A stretch of 64,000 nt of DNA from positions 32,001-96,000 of the IMG/VR virus record IMGVR_UViG_3300036984_000039. One strand, written 5' to 3'. The notes beneath the pieces were generated by a model, which saw only the letters and a list, made by a program, of their open reading frames with translations, was not told where the DNA came from and ran no database searches. Positions 11,124 to 41,407 of the stretch are shown in pieces (positions within the stretch are counted from its first letter, which is position 1; each line of letters begins with the position of its first letter). The stretch is from a virus. Lineage: Duplodnaviria > Caudoviricetes. The position numbers and the translations under genes are program-made.

Positions 11124-11624
11124 CCGATCAATTCCTTCCTACTGCTAGGCAATGCGGTGGTCGCGGCGCGCCTTGCGGTCGCGGCAGGTCACGCGCGCCC
11201 GTTGCTTGTCGTGCATCCCAGGTTTTGGGCACAGTGCTCCCAACGCTTAGAAAGCGGTCGTTGAGTACAACCGGCGACAGGTGTCGCAACATGCCTCTTT
11301 ACCCGCCCTGCCGAGCCGATGATTTCGCGGGAAGCGGTCTGAGTGCCGCTTGAGCATGTCCTCCGGGCTTGCGCCCACTCGTGGGAGTCACTTGGTTTTC
11401 TTGCAGGTACGAGCATCAGTCCCGTCTTACCGGGAATGCCGTTTCCGACCGCCGTGCTCGTCTGTTTGAAGCCGCACGTCTTCCAGGTTCTCCGGCTGTT
11501 TCCCGCCTGGAGGGGCAGCGGGCTGGCAATGTTATGAAGGCTGACAGGACGTGCGCCTGTGCCACATGGTAGCGGGTTCTCAGGCCCGCCATAGCGCCAG
11601 AAAGCAAAACGCCCGACCGTTAGG

Positions 11625-11858
11625 TCAGGCGTTGGGTACAACAGTAAATTCAATGCCAATGGCGTCAGCCGAAAGCGCCGCAAAGGCAGCGCGGGCCACG
11701 ACCGATGCCGCAGCCAGCCGTTCGTATTCGGCTGGCTCAAGCGCGTCGACAGCTTCGTGCAACAACAGGCCGAAGTTGTCTACGACGACGCGCAGGCTCT
11801 CCATATCAACAGCATGGCTGTCAGACAGCGTGACCCGTTTGGCGTAGAGTGGTGGCAT
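11625..11858 (-). CDS. Hypothetical protein
   Basis: ATG follows AGGAG at the end of structured leader A. Confidence 0.6.
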   Translation of the reverse strand: MPPLYAKRVTLSDSHAVDMESLRVVVDNFGLLLHEAVDALEPAEYERLAAASVVARAAFAALSADAIGIEFTVVPNA

Positions 11859-12035
11859 AAGAAAAGCTCCTGTGCATTCGTCCGGGAGACGACCTAGCCG
11901 ACAGACAGACTCGCGCCGGGTAGCGCTTGGCAATCGGTCGGCTCCCGACGAACGAACAGGAGCCTTATCTGTCTGTCTACTGCGTACTGTCCCTCGTCCT
12001 CTGCCAGTTCCCAGGCTGGCGTCGTCAGTTCAGCA
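11859..12035 (-). promoter_or_regulatory. Structured 5' leader RNA, copy A
   Basis: Shares ordered motifs and covarying stems with 41014-41186. Promoter TTGACA-N18-TAAGAT at 12072-12043. Confidence 0.7.
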
Positions 12036-12109
12036 CGTTTCTATCTTATCACAACTCGCTTGGAAATGTCAAGTACCTGCGAGGGCAAATTTTCAAACTC
12101 GTTGCCGAA

Positions 12110-12125
12110 TGTTTCACGTGAAACA
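12110..12125. promoter_or_regulatory. parS: parS site (ParB binding)
   Basis: Exact TGTTTCACGTGAAACA, inside a 22-bp perfect palindrome at 12107-12128. Confidence 0.8.
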
Positions 12126-12137
12126 TTCCAGGCGAAT

Positions 12138-12166
12138 TTGACACCCGCCGCGACCTCTGCTATACT
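12138..12166 (+). promoter_or_regulatory. Sigma70-type promoter
   Basis: TTGACA-N17-TATACT with extended TG. Confidence 0.85.
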
Positions 12167-12172
12167 CCCGTC

Positions 12173-12408
12173 TGGTTAGGTAAGCTAGTACTGGAGCAGT
12201 CGGGTCACGTTGCGATAACGTGTGAGGAGCACGGCGGCGGCGGAGTAACGGAAAGGTTACACGGCGCACCGGAAACCGAAGACCGGCAAGTCGGGAAGCA
12301 CGATCTGAGCGTGCCAGCGATATCAGACAGGCGTAAATGACGCCCTCCATCTCGCCCAACTAACACGACAACGCCGCCCAGGTTCGTCCTGGCGGCGTTG
12401 CTGTTTCT
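12173..12408 (+). ncRNA. Stand-alone structured small RNA (~200-235 nt), family unknown
   Basis: Has its own promoter and terminator, no credible plus-strand ORF, several hairpins and a closing GTTAG/CTAAC stem. Confidence 0.6.
12369..12408 (+). terminator. Intrinsic terminator, probably bidirectional
   Basis: CAACGCCGCC(C)AGG-TTCG-TCCT-GGCGGCGTTG followed by CTGTTTCT, between convergent units. Confidence 0.7.
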
Positions 12409-12413
12409 GGCGC

Positions 12414-12611
12414 TCACGGCTTCCACACGCGGATTTTCAATTCCTCTCGCGGTTCCTCCGCCTCGGCCTCCGGTGCATCCGGTCCGATCAGCGGCGCATC
12501 GTTCGGCTTCCGCAGCGACGACTCAAGGCCGTGCTCGTTGTCGATCAGCACGGCGATGATGGCCGCCACGCACAGGGCCACCGCCAGGAATTGCGCCAGC
12601 AGATTCGTCAC
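12414..12611 (-). CDS. Small membrane protein
   Basis: One N-terminal hydrophobic helix; GTGA coupling. Confidence 0.55.
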   Translation of the reverse strand: MTNLLAQFLAVALCVAAIIAVLIDNEHGLESSLRKPNDAPLIGPDAPEAEAEEPREELKIRVWKP

Positions 12612-14140: not shown

Positions 14141-14278
14141 CTATTGCTCCGTCTCCCACGCATCCTTGCGCTCAGCCAGGCAGACGTTGTACCAGCGCCG
14201 GCACGTCTCCAGCGTCTGGTTCAACAACCGTTCCTGACTCTTGCTCGGATAGAGACGGTAGCGAAAAGTGGCAAGCAT
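14141..14278 (-). pseudogene. tnpB: tnpB 5' stub (HTH_OrfB_IS605)
   Basis: MLATFRYRLYPSKSQERLLNQTLETCRRWYNVCLAERKDAWE closely parallels the N-terminus of the intact TnpB at 33507. Confidence 0.9.
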
Positions 14279-14652
14279 TACAGGCCCTTCTGCGCGTCGA
14301 TGTACTTCTGGTCGGGTTGCATCGTGAGCCACCACCGAGGATTTGGCTTGTCTCGATTGCCTTTCGAGCCATTGCACGCAGCGCACAATGGTTGCAGGTT
14401 GCCATCTGTGTTCGTACCACCAACAGTCAACGGGGCGATGTGATCTATGCAGATGTACTCGCATGATCCACAATGGGCACATTTACCATCATGGGCCGCC
14501 AAAACGTCCAACCATCCCTGCAAGGTGATAACCTCATTGGGGCGTCCCATGTTACGAGCCCGCGCGTTTTGACTTCCGACGCGCATCGACCACATACGAC
14601 GCACTTCCCAATCTGACATACCGTCAGTCGTTCTGATGAGAAAGCTGCGCAT
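14278..14652 (-). CDS. HNH endonuclease
   Basis: CAHCG..IDHIAPLTVGGTNTDGNLQPLCAACNGSKG; RBS GGAG; TAATG coupling to the tnpB stub. Confidence 0.9.
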   Translation of the reverse strand: MRSFLIRTTDGMSDWEVRRMWSMRVGSQNARARNMGRPNEVITLQGWLDVLAAHDGKCAHCGSCEYICIDHIAPLTVGGTNTDGNLQPLCAACNGSKGNRDKPNPRWWLTMQPDQKYIDAQKGL

Positions 14653-14800
14653 TCTCCGTCTCCGTTTCCAGCCTTTCCCATTCATCTCGCGCCAGTCGTT
14701 CGATGACTGCCACCATCGACGTGTCGGTGGCGGCAGCAATGCGGCGCAGCAAACGTCTTGTCTTGAGCCAAACCTTGATTGTCGTAAATTCTTCGCTCAT
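14624..14800 (-). CDS. Ribbon-helix-helix-like regulator (leaderless)
   Basis: TTIKVWLKTRRLLRRIAAATDTSMVAVIERLA. ATG lies 7 nt after TTGACA-N17-TAGAAT (14836-14808). Confidence 0.7.
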   Translation of the reverse strand: MSEEFTTIKVWLKTRRLLRRIAAATDTSMVAVIERLARDEWERLETETENAQLSHQND

Positions 14801-31895: not shown

Positions 31896-32008
31896 GACGC
31901 CTCCAATCAGGCGGACGAGGCGTCAACGCGCCTTTGGCGGGTGGATATTTGCATAAGTGTTAGTATAGCACTTCCGTTGCATTTTCGCAATAGGCAAAAT
32001 ATCACGCA

Positions 32009-33478
32009 TTACGCGGGCATGGCCCAGCGGTTCGGCGTCCTCTTTCCCGTCCCACCGATGGCATCGAATGACCATCCGGTTTGCCCGCGGCCCGCGCAGG
32101 CCAGGGCAAAGGACATAGCAAGGTCATCATGTTCTCCAGTCGGCGCGCTCAGCGTCGCGCCCTCTATCAATGCCAATTCTGTGAGGGACTCGAAGTCGTG
32201 CAGCTTGACCTCGCCGTTGCGCAGTTGGTCGGCCAGCGTGTTGTACATCAGCGTCTTGGAGAGCGTGGTCGTGCGCCAACCGGTCTTACCGTCATGGCCG
32301 GGCAGCAGGTAGAGTTTGGAGTGCTCGCGCAACCATAGGAGCACGGCGGTGCCTATGGAATTTGTCTCCAACATCACGGCCGCACGCATGTAAAACGTTC
32401 CGGTCATATCGACATACGAAGCCAAGACGGACGGTTCCACGCGTTCCCCGAACACCGCGGCCTGCTCGCCGGTCGTGCAATCGAGCACCTGAAAGGCCGA
32501 GGCGTCCGAGCCGGGATTGCCTTCGGCGGGATCGACGCCAATTACGTAGCGACCATCGGGTTTGGGCGGCGCGAAGATGCGCAGGCCGGGCACGGCGGGC
32601 GCACCGGGTACGTTACGCAGTGGCGGCATCTCGGCGGCGCAGAGCGTGAACCAGTCGGCGGCCAGGCGCTTGTCGAGTTGCGCGGGCCGTAACGCTTCTT
32701 CGTCGGTCAGCGGGTATTGCTCAAGCACATCGTCCAGCGCACCGGTGCGCGCCAGCACGTCGCGTTTTTGGGCCTCATACCATGCCTGCGTCCGTGAGGG
32801 CCGCGCTGTCCAGGGCAGGAACACCGGCGTCCATTCGCTGCTTTCCGGGTCACGCACCGCGCCGCGGTAGATAGCCTTGAAGATGGATTGCGGTTGGGTT
32901 TTGTCGCTTCGACTCAGAAGCGTCATGCGGCCGCCCGCGTCGATGGTCGGCTTGGCGCGGCGCAACAGGTCGTTCAGGTCGGGACAGATGTCGGCTTCGT
33001 CCACAAGCGCGTAGGTGACCGTGAATGCGTCACCGGCTCCGGCTGGCAAGGCGCGGGCGATGGAGCCATTGGACAGGCCCCAGGTATGATCGGAATCATT
33101 CGTAATGGTGATGCCCGCCTTGAGCCAGGCCGGCAGCCGCTCCCACATGCCGCGCAAGCGTTCCGGGCCGAGCAGGTAGACCGCTTCGCGATCCGTGCGA
33201 CAGAAGATCAGGATGGTTGCCGCGGGTCGGAAGATCATCAGCCACAGCGCATAGGCCAGGCACAGCCACGTCATACCCAGTTGCCGCGCCTTGAGGATCA
33301 CGACAAGCCGGTCGGCCTCCAACGTCTGCGCGACCTCGATCTGGCGCGGCCACAGGTGAAACGACAGCCAGTCGCCGGACACCGCGTCGTAAATCTCGCA
33401 GTAGGTATGCACGAAGTAAGCCAGCGCCTTGCGGCATAACGCAGCTTGGAGGATAGTTTCTTGCGCGCCTATTGACAT
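32009..33478 (-). CDS. terL: Terminase large subunit
   Basis: Walker A ILKARQLGMT, Walker B ALVDEA, nuclease IGVDPAEG..D..HDDLAMS. The longer ORF-track call is antisense to tnpB. Confidence 0.93.
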   Translation of the reverse strand: MSIGAQETILQAALCRKALAYFVHTYCEIYDAVSGDWLSFHLWPRQIEVAQTLEADRLVVILKARQLGMTWLCLAYALWLMIFRPAATILIFCRTDREAVYLLGPERLRGMWERLPAWLKAGITITNDSDHTWGLSNGSIARALPAGAGDAFTVTYALVDEADICPDLNDLLRRAKPTIDAGGRMTLLSRSDKTQPQSIFKAIYRGAVRDPESSEWTPVFLPWTARPSRTQAWYEAQKRDVLARTGALDDVLEQYPLTDEEALRPAQLDKRLAADWFTLCAAEMPPLRNVPGAPAVPGLRIFAPPKPDGRYVIGVDPAEGNPGSDASAFQVLDCTTGEQAAVFGERVEPSVLASYVDMTGTFYMRAAVMLETNSIGTAVLLWLREHSKLYLLPGHDGKTGWRTTTLSKTLMYNTLADQLRNGEVKLHDFESLTELALIEGATLSAPTGEHDDLAMSFALACAGRGQTGWSFDAIGGTGKRTPNRWAMPA

Positions 33479-34670
33479 TGTATAGATTCCGCGATACAAT
33501 ATCGCCATGAGATTAACGTACAAGTATCGAATCTTTCCGAGTAAATCACAGCGAACTTCCCTTAAGAAGGTACTTGGTGCATGTCGCTTCGTGTACAACA
33601 AGGCATTGGAAACTAGAAAAAATGCATGGGAAGAACGCCAAGAAGCTGTCAGTAAATACGATACGATTAATCTCATCCCTCAGTGGAAAGCTGAAAATGA
33701 ATGGCTTAAAGACGGTCACGCACAGGCTATGCAAGAAGCCTTGACGCGTCTTGATTTGGCTTTCCGCTCGTTCTTTCGCCGCGTGAAAGCTGGAGAAAAA
33801 CCAGGATATCCACGATTCAGATCGGCTGATCGTTACGATTCGTTTACGTATCCTCAAGAAAGGGGCAACTGGCGATTTCTCGATAATGGCCGCGTACGTC
33901 TGTCTAAGATTGGTGATGTCAAAATCAAGTTGCACCGCCCTCTTAGCGGGGAGTGCAAGACCCTGACCATTCAACGCGATGCTATTGGCAACTGGTACGC
34001 TTGCTTCTCTTGCATCGTTGAAGCCAATCCACTGATACCTACGGATAAGATAGTTGGAATCGACGTTGGTTTGACTCACTTTGCAACCCTGAGCGATGGA
34101 AGCCAAATTGATAATCCCCGCTTCTTTCGCAAGAGTGAAGATGCACTTGTAGCCGTACAGCGCCACTTGTCGAAAGAGACAAAGGGCACACCGGGATTTC
34201 ATCATTACAAGCGTGTGCTCAATCATATTCATCAGCGAATTGCCAATCGGCGCAAGAACTTTGCACACCAAGAATCGCGTAAGCTGATCGACAAGTATCA
34301 ACTAATCGCCTTTGAGGATTTGGACATCAACGGTATGATGGACGGCAACCACCGCGGTATGAACAAGAGTATTTGTGACGTTGCGTGGAATCAATTTGTG
34401 CAATTCACGACGAGCAAGGCGGAAGGTGCTGGCCGTCGCGTGGTACTTGTTGATCCGCGTAACACAACAAAACTCTGTTCCCGTTGCGGTGAAATTGTCC
34501 CCAAGAAAATGTCCGTTCGTGTTCATGTCTGCCCTAAGTGCGATATCGTGCTTGATCGGGATCATAATGCTGCTTTGAACATTCTTGCCCGCGGATTAGC
34601 TGGCATCAGCACCGGTTCGCCGGTTGTAGCTGTAGAAGCCCCGGCTTTAGCCGTGGGAGTAATCACTGAC
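33477..34670 (+). mobile_element. Non-autonomous IS200/IS605 element carrying tnpB, inserted at the terL start
   Basis: Right-end hairpin GAAGCCCCGGCTTTAGCCGTGGGAGTAATCAC. TGACA occurs on both sides, so the equivalent boundary is 33473-34666. Confidence 0.8.
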
Positions 34671-34709
34671 ACGGCCATGTTTTCAGTATATGCTAAGGCA
34701 ACACGTTAG
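33507..34709 (+). CDS. tnpB: RNA-guided endonuclease TnpB (intact, leaderless)
   Basis: TYKYRIFP, GIDVG, FEDL, CSRC..CPKC, DRDHNAA. ATG lies 6 nt after TTGACA-N17-TACAAT. Confidence 0.95.
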   Translation: MRLTYKYRIFPSKSQRTSLKKVLGACRFVYNKALETRKNAWEERQEAVSKYDTINLIPQWKAENEWLKDGHAQAMQEALTRLDLAFRSFFRRVKAGEKPGYPRFRSADRYDSFTYPQERGNWRFLDNGRVRLSKIGDVKIKLHRPLSGECKTLTIQRDAIGNWYACFSCIVEANPLIPTDKIVGIDVGLTHFATLSDGSQIDNPRFFRKSEDALVAVQRHLSKETKGTPGFHHYKRVLNHIHQRIANRRKNFAHQESRKLIDKYQLIAFEDLDINGMMDGNHRGMNKSICDVAWNQFVQFTTSKAEGAGRRVVLVDPRNTTKLCSRCGEIVPKKMSVRVHVCPKCDIVLDRDHNAALNILARGLAGISTGSPVVAVEAPALAVGVITDTAMFSVYAKATR

Positions 34710-39000: not shown

Positions 39001-39645
39001 TCATCTGGCGGCCTTACTGCTCCTACCATCCCCAGGCCGATAATCAACAATCTTATCGTGCTTGCTGCAATTGCAGGACTTGCAAAGCGGCTGAAGGTTA
39101 TCGATGGTATGCGATCCGCCTTTTGACAAGGGTACAATATGATCTTGCGTGATATTCTCTGACGAACCACATCGAAGACAGACGTTCCCGTAATGGTTAC
39201 ATAACTGCATCCATGCAGACTCGGAAACGACTCCACCAGCCCCCTTCTTTCTAGCTCTCCGCCGTCTGTGTGCCTCTCTTAGCTTATCGACGTTAGTCTT
39301 CTGCCATTTCCTTACCGCCTCCAAACATCGTCCCGGATGCCGCAAGTAGTATCGTCCCGGATGCCGCAAGTGGTACAGGCGATCATTTGCTTGCTTTTTG
39401 TCGGGGTTGTTTTTCGCCCACTGTCGAGACCTTTCTCTATCCCTAACGGCTATTCCAGGATACCGTTCGCGTTGCTTCTCGTTGATCTCGTCCTTGTTTT
39501 TTGCGCGCCATTCGCGTTGATAAGCGGCATGTTCAGCCCTATTTTCCTGTCGCCAAATCCTTGAACGTTCTCTCCCGCATGGCGCGCATTTCCCGTTTTT
39601 CAACCATTCAGACGAACCACATCTAGGACATATCTTAGTAGCCAT
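39001..39645 (-). CDS. HNH endonuclease occupying the position of tnpB
   Basis: CPRC..CAPC; CLRCG..QDHIVPLSKGGSHTIDNLQPLCKSCNCSK. Confidence 0.92.
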   Translation of the reverse strand: MATKICPRCGSSEWLKNGKCAPCGRERSRIWRQENRAEHAAYQREWRAKNKDEINEKQRERYPGIAVRDRERSRQWAKNNPDKKQANDRLYHLRHPGRYYLRHPGRCLEAVRKWQKTNVDKLREAHRRRRARKKGAGGVVSESAWMQLCNHYGNVCLRCGSSENITQDHIVPLSKGGSHTIDNLQPLCKSCNCSKHDKIVDYRPGDGRSSKAAR

Positions 39646-39745
39646 TTGTCCAATTCCAAGTAAAGCGCGCAATACCGGCACAGCGCCAAAAATACTGTTC
39701 CTGCTCAGGCGTCGGGTTTAGTCGTATACGATGCGCTCTGTGCAT
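39635..39745 (-). pseudogene. tnpB: tnpB 5' stub (36 aa, not in ORF track)
   Basis: MHRAHRIRLNPTPEQEQYFWRCAGIARFTWNW matches the TnpB N-terminal HTH; RBS AAGGAGG. Confidence 0.85.
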
Positions 39746-40011: not shown

Positions 40012-41013
40012 TCATCGCGCGTACCATAGGCGGCTCAACGGCACGCCGCAAGACACCAAGACGGGCGGTAGATGGTCGCTCAACTTGGCGGGTATGAAGG
40101 GGCGCGTGTACCAGCGATACGACATGGACAGATGAGAAAGATCGGATGTCGGAAGGGCCGTCGAGTTCTGCGAGCAGCGGTGCGCCGGCAAGGGCTTTTT
40201 TTCTGCGTGCATGTGGGTCGCCAAACGGCGACGGCGGGTCTGTGTGCGTGGGCGGGAAAGTTGATTGATAATCTGTCCAGGGCGTAGGTCGCGGGTTGGG
40301 AAGTAACTATTGGCAAGCTGCCAAACGATAAGGTAGACCTCCTGACAAGTGCGACGATGTTCGATGAATTCAGCCAAGCGCGTAGACGAGAATAGTCGGC
40401 CACATTCGCAGTGCATCTCGTGCGGACGTTCCGGCATATCGTGCAGCGTCTCCGGCAAGGTGAAAGCCCAGTTCGACAGGTGTTTGACGCCGGCGCGGCG
40501 TTCCCAATTGCGCAGGGTAGTGGCGGTGACGCCGAACGCCGCGATGAGCCGACTGCGCGGGATGGGCGCAGCGCGCACTTCGCGATAACCGGCATGTGTG
40601 ACGACTTCGGGCATGGGCAGCCAGCCGGCAAAGCACAAGGCGTTGAAATGGTGTAGGCTGGCGAGTTCGGGCAGCGGGATTAGGATGGGCGATACTTCGG
40701 CCTGGGCGTCGGTGGCGATCTGCGCCAGCACGTAATTGGGGTTACGCACATAGAGGCGGGCGTGCTTGGCGTCCACGTCCCACCAGATACCGTCGCCGCG
40801 CTGTAGCAGGTGTTTCGTCCAGCGCCGTGAGACACCGAATGCTTCATGGGCGGCGTACAGCGCCTCTACCTGGGTCAACCAGCGGCGCGCGCCTTGCCGG
40901 TCGTGCAACAGGGCATACAGGCGATGCTCGGCGGCTTGCCCGGCGCGCACGGCATGGCGAAAGAGTTCTGGCTGTACGCGGATGGCGGGCGGGTTGGCGG
41001 GATCGTCGGGCAA
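40012..41013 (-). CDS. Hypothetical HTH protein, possibly replication-related
   Basis: TTG start after AGGAG; RSRLIAAFGVTATTLRNWE HTH; CECG..H..C. Confidence 0.6.
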   Translation of the reverse strand: MPDDPANPPAIRVQPELFRHAVRAGQAAEHRLYALLHDRQGARRWLTQVEALYAAHEAFGVSRRWTKHLLQRGDGIWWDVDAKHARLYVRNPNYVLAQIATDAQAEVSPILIPLPELASLHHFNALCFAGWLPMPEVVTHAGYREVRAAPIPRSRLIAAFGVTATTLRNWERRAGVKHLSNWAFTLPETLHDMPERPHEMHCECGRLFSSTRLAEFIEHRRTCQEVYLIVWQLANSYFPTRDLRPGQIINQLSRPRTQTRRRRLATHMHAEKKPLPAHRCSQNSTALPTSDLSHLSMSYRWYTRPFIPAKLSDHLPPVLVSCGVPLSRLWYAR

Positions 41014-41186
41014 AAGAAAAGCTCCTGCGCGCTGCGGTGGTGCCGACTAGCCGACAGGAAGCTTTCGCACTTGCTGAGGGTGCTAGGCATTATCGGCCTC
41101 ACCGCAACGGGTAGGAGCCTCGCTTCCTGTCTACTGCACTTGTGGCATTCACCAGTTCAGCGGACTGGCAACCTTCACCTCAAGCG
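41014..41186 (-). promoter_or_regulatory. Structured 5' leader RNA, copy B
   Basis: Homologous to 11859-12035. Promoter TTGACA-N16-TATAAT at 41220-41193. Confidence 0.7.
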
Positions 41187-41407
41187 TCTTTGATTATATC
41201 ACAACCTGCCCGTTTGTCAAGAGGCAGTTTTGCGCATCACGCGGCGCGTTCCTGCTAGGCGTCGCGCAGCGCCTCGTTGAGCGTGAGATTTTGCATCACG
41301 CGTTCTCATCTCCATCGGCCCGGCTTGCCACGCACAGCGCGGCCATGATAAGCGTACCGCCGATAGCGCCGATAACTGCTGCGGCCAGGACGGTCAACCA
41401 CGTAGGA

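Follow-up and report, generated by a model that had tools for sequence, protein, structure and literature searches.

Two leader sequences in a sediment phage genome each carry covarying helices for two alternative RNA folds, one of which pairs the Shine-Dalgarno (SD) sequence of the gene behind it. The genome is IMG/VR virus record IMGVR_UViG_3300036984_000039, which is 107.5 kb long, rated complete and derived from a sediment metagenome; the window analysed here is its 64,000-nucleotide (nt) stretch from base 32001 to base 96000. Terminase, portal, head protease, ligase and FtsK-like genes identify a tailed phage, one with no close cultured relatives. Together with a third copy in another phage, the two leaders are read here as a conserved, two-state, cis-acting regulatory element that forms a new RNA family, a reading to which we give a probability of roughly 0.85. 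The family has no earlier description; the kind of element to which it belongs is known. The leader most likely controls whether the gene immediately downstream is expressed.

In the mechanism that we propose, a strong constitutive sigma-70 promoter would make the leader, and the emerging RNA would fold first into an ON state, a three-way junction that helix a/a' closes with 12 pairs around a conserved A.G mismatch. Of the two arms, one would hold the anti-SD strand GGCUCC on an SD-mimic, GGGAGCC or similar, and hairpin f would form the other. The real SD and the start codon would emerge unpaired, and ribosomes could load. In the ground state, OFF, the anti-SD would sit on the SD and its flanks on the start-codon region, with a U-tract behind. 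Strand exchange from ON to OFF would be open through the GUCGGC sites, which lie in tandem, and through two look-alike strands, AGUAGAC and AGCCGAC; each transcript would be translatable briefly and then lock itself. Where a/a' is blocked, the hairpin might additionally terminate transcription. We give even odds to this account as a whole, a self-limiting switch that would be ON by kinetics and OFF by thermodynamics; for the switch being set kinetically rather than by a factor the odds are even or slightly short of that. Possibly a factor holds the leader.

Leader copies and covarying helices

Copies A and B are both read from the minus strand, each behind its own near-consensus sigma-70 promoter:

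11859-12036, minus strand: leader copy A, reading 5' to 3' up to the start codon
41014-41186, minus strand: leader copy B, reading 5' to 3' up to the start codon
12043-12072, minus strand: promoter of copy A, TTGACA-18-TAAGAT with TG before the -10 box, 10/12 matches, near-consensus sigma-70
41193-41220, minus strand: promoter of copy B, TTGACA-16-TATAAT with TG before the -10 box, 12/12 matches

Promoter spacing predicts transcription starts at about 12036-12038 for copy A and about 41186-41187 for copy B. Aligned with each other, A and B have a mean column identity of 74%, exact blocks (GCAGTAGACAG, AGGCTCCT, CTGTCGGCTAG and CAGGAGCTTTTCTT) alternating with variable stretches, and the similarity ends at the start codons, ATG at 11858 in A and TTG at 41013 in B. 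When the whole 107.5-kb genome was scanned, the shared blocks co-occurred at these two places only, and a covariance model matches exactly the same two copies there.

The third copy was reached through the protein encoded behind copy B (protein B). An exhaustive phmmer search with it returned 92 remote homologues, the closest of which (P0003, 34% identity) belongs to a phage whose complete 73.5-kb genome has terminal repeats. There a model based on A and B has a single hit, copy C (L171:1373-1550, 49.6 bits, E ~1e-12). Copy C sits behind a promoter TTGACA-17-TAAGAT and before an unrelated open reading frame (ORF) of 76 amino acids, about 950 nt upstream of the P0003 gene and not directly before it. 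It is without the 5' domain of A and B; from strand a, defined below, through the start region everything is kept. The promoters of the three copies match at 10-12 of 12 positions, and the SD AGGAG stands 8 nt from the start codon in A and B and 12 nt from it in C. The leader cores are 72-74% identical in every pairing; the paralogues A and B are as distant from each other as from copy C, and the family is read as old and maintained.

The helices are built from the following strands of the two window copies:

11984-12036, minus strand: 5' domain of copy A, with the hairpin GCCAG-CCUGGGAA-CUGGC inside helix GUGCUG/CAGUAC, from the minimum free energy (MFE) fold
11967-11981, minus strand: strand a of copy A, AGUAGACAGACAGAU, which forms the 5' side of the ON closing helix
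11956-11966, minus strand: anti-SD strand b5' of copy A, AAGGCUCCUGU, partner of the SD (OFF) or of the SD-mimic GGGAGCC (ON)
11896-11910, minus strand: strand a' of copy A, GUCUGUCUGUCGGCU, within the long hairpin, partner of strand a
11859-11966, minus strand: OFF hairpin of copy A, with helices b, c, d, e and f, SD AGGAG at 11867-11871 and tail CUUUUCUU
41121-41135, minus strand: strand a of copy B, AGUAGACAGGAAGCG
41049-41063, minus strand: strand a' of copy B, AGCUUCCUGUCGGCU
41014-41121, minus strand: OFF hairpin of copy B, with SD AGGAG at 41022-41026 and tail CUUUUCUU

Pair counts were taken on ungapped helix strands; MAFFT and model alignments misregister a/a' of copy A. Helix a/a' consists of GACAGACAG/CTGTCTGTC in A, GACAGGAAGC/GCTTCCTGTC in B and GACUGAAGGC/GCCUUCAGUC in C. 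It extends into the two most conserved blocks, AGU-A-GACAG plus a variable part pairing with a variable part plus CUGUC-G-GCU, so that these blocks pair with each other. Of its 13 columns, 12 are paired in every copy, the remaining one being the conserved A.G mismatch; compensatory double changes across the three copies occur in 5 of the 13. Paired cells number 36/39, against 8-23/39 in a control in which the 3' strand was slid by 1-8 positions. The seemingly conserved GACAG/CUGUC of this helix itself changes to GACUG/CAGUC in copy C.

The remaining helices vary in the same manner. Helix c (TTCGTCGGGAG/CTCCCGGACGAA in A, TGCGGTG/CACCGCA in B) has a different sequence in every copy and retains 9-13 pairs, and the inner hairpin reads GCGC/GCGC in A, GCAC/GTGC in B. 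Helix b (GCTCCT/AGGAGC), which covers the SD, has one compensatory column (G-C to A-U); helix f has two. The 5' helix covaries between A and B (GUGCUG/CAGUAC versus CGCUUG/CAAGUG) around a small hairpin. Relative to dinucleotide shuffles, the MFE z-scores are -3.4 for A and -3.1 for B. RNAalifold returns a three-way junction on the segment from a to a' and a long hairpin on the segment from b to b'.

Folded-DNA recombination sites likewise show structure-preserving changes, and a palindrome acting as DNA (a recombination site or an origin-like site, with cassette exchange) or left as a functionless, duplicated relic would fit one further observation, that the cargo is swapped between copies and phages while the leader and, in two phages, a terminator are kept. 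We nevertheless consider this very improbable. The conserved unit spans exactly the distance from promoter to start codon, and its 3' stem holds the SD. Both folds use G-U pairs, 3-9 per copy. In A and B the sense strand folds better than the antisense strand, and the model gives them 205 and 198 bits in the sense direction versus 21 and 17.5 bits on the other strand, about a ten-fold difference. Two alternative folds are conserved, which a simple DNA hairpin would not need, and no recombinase gene adjoins either copy.

Copies beyond these three were sought in several ways. Word-based and pattern searches had yielded no copy before the phmmer route via protein B, and in exact-pattern scans of viral, metagenome and genome contigs, with a screen by model R1, only the L171/L189 contig was genuine among the matches listed. 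In the phages collection the DNA search was empty, as was tblastn with P0003, and none of five terminase relatives (28-51% identity, all incomplete records) contains a leader copy. Metagenome matches on L029, L074, L105, L123 and L134 (13-23 bits) were rejected as palindromic intergenic repeats of the heptad CAGTAGA that had been caught by shared search words. These elements are a separate observation. They lie at L029:279-400, L029:4688-4800, L074:190-310, L105:234-355, L123:1675-1812 and L134:1982-2149, often next to gene starts, and consist of heptads (CAGTAGA)n ... (TCTACTG)n flanking a GGCTCCGC core; nothing in Rfam matches them, and they bear no relation to the leader.

Two folds, their predicted order and their possible control

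In the predicted ON fold, a/a' closes a three-way junction. In one of its arms the anti-SD (GGCUCC, or GACUCC in C) is paired with an SD-like sequence inside the leader, GGGAGCC or GAGGCC; hairpin f makes up the other. In the OFF fold the real SD is taken up by the anti-SD through helix b (AGGCUCCU/AGGAGCUU), helices c and d close, and the result is an interrupted hairpin of about 30 bp whose flanks pair as far as the start codon (through GCA/UGC in A and B and through GGCA/UGCC in C). The OFF hairpin of copy A has an MFE of -81 kcal/mol. In the three copies OFF is more stable than the best fold that contains a/a' by 12.6, 12.9 and 10.3 kcal/mol, and the probability that the SD is unpaired at equilibrium is 0.0002-0.01. 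The leader accordingly shares with kinetic traps a ground state in which the SD is paired with an upstream strand, and with riboswitches a pair of alternative folds with a platform placed to control SD access or termination.

In the OFF fold neither strand a nor strand a' is strongly paired, which argues that a/a' exists solely to support the ON fold. Helix a/a' and the full b+c stem would be mutually exclusive, because a pseudoknot containing both would need a linker of 0-3 nt across 12 pairs; in addition, helices e and d use some of the bases that form the outer AGU/GCU pairs of a/a'. In prefix MFE folds, a thermodynamic proxy, a/a' is present in all three copies once a' has been made (115-160 nt), and the flip to b/c/d comes only after the 3' strands have been added, an order consistent with ON folding first. 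The invariant GUCGGC occurs twice in tandem and can pair with AGUAGAC in strand a or with its look-alike AGCCGAC in strand d; the arrangement would resemble a built-in strand-exchange route from ON to OFF. A kissing loop between the 5' loop and the f loop was considered and rejected: 4-6 bases are complementary in each copy, at non-homologous positions, and by estimate chance is a plausible source.

The main rival is a riboswitch-like ON switch, in which the three-way junction would serve as an aptamer, its ligand being a small molecule or an RNA-binding protein; the bound junction would stay in the ON fold, and the unbound leader would fall into the terminator or SD-sequestering hairpin. The architecture is of the ON type, with a covarying closing helix, two arms, conserved junction nucleotides and a competing platform that reuses aptamer strands, and OFF is the ground state. 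The joining strands UGCCwAGC and GCGAAAG or GCGAGU are conserved in three copies while the helices vary. These strands, however, also pair in the OFF fold (GCC/GGC and GCCGAC/GUCGGC), which could by itself account for their conservation, and a helix a/a' of 12 pairs should form unaided. No known aptamer class in Rfam matches, three sequences are too few for defining a binding pocket, and no candidate for an RNA-binding regulator was recognised near either copy. We hold this rival to be unlikely. Somewhat less likely again is a narrower version, in which a small molecule or second messenger would be sensed by a new riboswitch class whose aptamer is the a/a'-closed junction, the host state would gate both the initiator-like gene behind copy B and the exchangeable accessory cargo, and the long hairpin would act as terminator and SD-sequestering platform in one. 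From three sequences the kinetic account and a junction held by a ligand or a protein cannot be told apart.

A long interrupted duplex might also serve as a site for RNase III, with the host enzyme cutting it and either freeing the SD or destroying the mRNA, and with a/a' deciding whether the duplex exists. Phage leaders processed by RNase III are well known, from lambda N, where cutting frees the SD, and from the early RNAs of T7, and the OFF hairpin offers about 30 near-continuous pairs in each of the three copies. Its duplex is nonetheless interrupted by bulges every 5-13 pairs, and cleavage leaves the conserved U-tract and the SD-mimic unexplained. We judge this explanation improbable.

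The U-tract bears on transcription as well. In the three copies the G+C-rich stem base CAGGAGC/GCUCCUG is followed directly by UUUUCUUAU, UUUUCUUUU or UUUUGUUUU, and the U-tail scores are -3.94 in A and -4.31 in B, with a three-copy range of -3.9 to -4.3. A G+C-rich stem with an immediate U-tract, as in an intrinsic terminator, is therefore found in every copy, and copy C retains the U-tract despite an AUG that is 12 nt from the SD. The OFF hairpin with its conserved U-tract is terminator-like on these grounds and, if formed in time, may also terminate transcription.

A stronger claim would make the leader a factor-dependent transcription attenuator, with termination at the U-tract as its main output, a/a' and the mimic arm as the antiterminator, and a trans factor that binds strand a (AGUAGAC...) before a' is made, so that transcription ends in a leader RNA of ~130-175 nt. 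Tails of the form UUUUCUU(A/U)U or UUUUGUUUU behind the same stem base in three copies are in keeping with this, as is the U-tract kept by copy C, and bona fide terminators of both phages carry similar tails. Against these points, the closing stem encloses about 95 nt, no antisense partner of strand a is evident in the genome, the neighbouring small RNA has no special complementarity, and no antisense promoter was found in leaders A and B. Since the SD and the start codon lie within the structure, translational control is served at least equally. An attenuator of this kind is doubtful, a little more so than the aptamer of a new class.

With both folds described, the fate of an earlier note on this DNA can be given. 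It had claimed two block-sharing leaders before unrelated genes, variable parts that keep their pairing, a helix b that sequesters the SD, and two alternative folds. Both leaders are where it placed them, at 74% column identity; pairing is confirmed for a/a' (36/39 cells over three copies), c, the inner hairpin and b; the OFF ground state pairs the SD with the upstream anti-SD strand; and covariation keeps both folds in three copies. The alignment and covariance model that it had proposed as a check gave two copies in this genome and a third in the other phage.

Several points weigh against the two-state kinetic account. Three sequences are too few for power in a statistical covariation test (R-scape). 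The predicted barrier from ON to OFF is high (findpath gives at least 25-30 kcal/mol, an upper-bound estimate), and unaided refolding may be too slow, which would favour a factor-driven switch. The 12-pair closing helix is far stronger than the closing helix (P1) typical of ligand-dependent riboswitches, and OFF may rarely be reached. The exclusivity of a/a' and b+c is argued from topology. The antisense strand of copy C folds as well as its sense strand, and the 5' domain of A and B is missing from that copy. Finally, a simple terminator scan misses the OFF hairpin, whose enclosed structured stem exceeds the 8-nt loop limit.

Cargo genes and an exchangeable slot

The leaders stand before unrelated genes, and the copy-A unit ends in a terminator of its own:

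11625-11858, minus strand: cargo gene A, a 77-amino-acid orphan, with ATG at 11858, 8 nt after the SD
40012-41013, minus strand: cargo gene B, 333 amino acids with a TTG start, coding for a winged-helix N-domain, a helix-turn-helix (TLRNWER) and a Cys/His cluster
11608-11633, minus strand: intrinsic terminator of the copy-A unit, 27/29 identical to L171:2337-2358 (plus strand)

Cargo proteins A and B are unrelated to each other and the ORF behind copy C is unrelated too, which makes three different genes in two phages. For protein A, Pfam, PHROG and Atlas gave no lead, and apart from a fragment of itself no homologue turned up. No Pfam or PHROG family includes protein B, and it has no significant sequence match in PDB. 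Its AlphaFold 2 model reaches a predicted local distance difference test (pLDDT) of 85 when based on a multiple sequence alignment, and 32 from the single sequence. VIA-align gives Z 5.0-6.6 against the N-terminal domain of DnaD, a plasmid initiator, ORC/Cdc6 winged-helix domains and Pi, scores that unrelated winged helices reach likewise. Foldseek returned nothing below E 1e-3, with RepE and Pi at template modelling (TM) scores of 0.3-0.4. A replication-initiator-like role for protein B is to be taken as a lead, not a finding. Short direct repeats occur upstream of the protein-B genes: CGCGTGATGC is found twice in the window (41230-41300, minus strand), and CGTCAG four times before the gene of the homologue in the other phage (L171:2380-2465, plus strand). 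They could be iterons or operators.

The copy-A unit is monocistronic. Its terminator counterpart at L171:2337-2358 (plus strand) closes the three-ORF cargo of copy C, which is unrelated to cargo A. Near-identical terminators behind unrelated cargo suggest that leader and terminator frame an exchangeable cargo slot. Among the sequencing runs listed for this sequence none is of RNA, and four DNA runs gave contig fragments only. Contigs from such runs break around the leader. One, from another sediment run, keeps 11854-11962 at ~95% identity, its other 200 nt being off-window; another, from a third run, retains the divergent side (12074-12602), its sequence changing at the -35 box. These breaks point to the leader as the portable book-end of a variable cargo slot. 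The leader would mark such a slot in two phages, and variable cargo slots often house accessory or host-interaction genes.

Other features lie close to the two units. Divergent from leader A is an RNA-like unit (12138-12405, plus strand) with a promoter TTGACA-17-TATACT and ~235 nt without a credible ORF; it ends in a G+C-rich hairpin followed by GTTGCTGTTTCT, and even at E<5 Rfam gives no match to it. Between the two divergent promoters, at 12108-12129, is a perfect 22-bp palindrome, GAATGTTTCACGTGAAACATTC, which looks operator-like. HNH endonuclease genes are found at 39001-39681 and 14278-14739, both on the minus strand; one HNH gene lies directly downstream of the copy-B unit and has its own consensus promoter at 39918-39891. 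Elsewhere in the window, a transposase gene (33507-34709, plus strand; PHROG 506, E 6e-109) adjoins the large-terminase ORF (32009-33676, minus strand), whose annotated 5' end it overlaps. A comparison of the transposase-gene DNA with the plasmid collection gave no near-identical copy.

If the two-state reading holds, the leader would be a compact, portable RNA module, placed between a constitutive promoter and unrelated genes and limiting or timing their expression. Covariation backs both folds of this DNA-phage leader, which has no known ligand, antisense RNA or leader peptide. To our knowledge, DNA-phage leaders with both folds supported by covariation are rare. A design of this type, with a long closing helix whose sequence can be chosen freely, might also lend itself to use as an orthogonal synthetic switch.

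Comparison with known regulatory RNAs

At the gathering score, Rfam 15 has no match in the window or in L171. At E<5 both leaders return only noise, with C4, c4-2 and c4-a1b1 absent, and the best riboswitch model is Guanidine-III at 14.5 bits (gathering score 36, E 1.8). The leader therefore falls into no described aptamer class, and the novelty that the earlier note had made conditional on a comparison with C4, c4-2 and c4-a1b1 is upheld, no existing family being matched. Its proposal of a translational ON/OFF switch is supported as regards the structured 5' leader, the SD pairing and the two conserved folds, and unsupported in the analogy to P1 C4 or P4 CI that went with it: pairing is all intramolecular, neither a nor a' has a second target site at the ribosome-binding site (RBS), and no C4 model matches. 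The new riboswitch-like class that it offered as an alternative is compatible with the lack of any Rfam match, and its probability is as graded above.

The C4/CI analogy has points in its favour. C4, from the immI operon of P1 and P7, and CI of P4 too are phage leader-encoded RNAs with short complementary boxes that control translation or termination downstream. In antisense immunity of that type a processed small RNA would pair RBS targets in trans, and the variable a/a' would carry specificity. This part of the leader does differ between the two copies of one genome with both strands matched, which recalls the matched differences of P1 and P7 C4 in the complementary boxes of both partners (PMC8198154). 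C4/CI RNAs, however, are processed, for C4 in an RNase P-dependent way into a stable small RNA, and have antisense boxes with two targets, one of them at the RBS, whereas here a and a' occur once per leader, away from SD and start codon, and their pairing is fully accounted for in cis. A scan of the 107.5-kb genome for 10-mers complementary to either leader gave matches that extend to 13-mers at most, five of them and mutually unrelated, as expected by chance. A full-length duplex with the neighbouring ~235-nt RNA-like unit has energies no better than shuffles, in a crude test. We regard antisense immunity of the C4/CI type as very improbable.

Two conformations that expose or hide the SD or the start codon are also known from lambda cIII mRNA and from hok-type and other type I toxin mRNAs, and metastable co-transcriptional folds are involved in the toxin mRNAs. 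The inputs there are RNase III binding, 3' processing or an antisense RNA, none of which is evident here; sequences and layouts differ, and the cargo of the leader is not a small hydrophobic toxin. In the com-mom system of phage Mu a hairpin hides the translation start and a small zinc-finger protein opens it. The likeness is that a hairpin over the start of a phage gene must open for expression. Unlike in Mu, an internal RNA strand (a/a' with the SD-mimic) provides the alternative fold here, and no Com-like gene was recognised.

ON-type riboswitches such as adenine pbuE/ydhL have a closing helix and junction that compete co-transcriptionally with a stabler terminator or SD hairpin reusing aptamer strands. 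The leader shares this architecture, a covarying closing helix and junction against a stabler hairpin, and differs in that no known aptamer class matches and in a closing helix far longer than P1.

For the kinetic account the precedent is the leader of the maturation (A-protein) gene of Levivirus. There, an early metastable structure delays SD pairing and leaves a short window for translation, and both structures are backed by compensatory changes (PMC4615214). As in the leaders of MS2, fr and KU1, the SD of the phage leader described here is paired in the ground state with an upstream complementary strand. Levivirus is an RNA phage whose RNA is made by a replicase, whereas this leader is a sigma-70 transcript of a double-stranded DNA phage, and the two have no sequence or model similarity. 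The metastable element of Levivirus is a small hairpin that holds the anti-SD; in its place the leader has a three-way junction with a long-range helix of 12 pairs and an SD-mimic, and it adds the terminator-like U-tract. As a natural case, the leader could extend self-timed translation under kinetic control beyond the RNA phages; just as well, it could represent a new riboswitch-like class.

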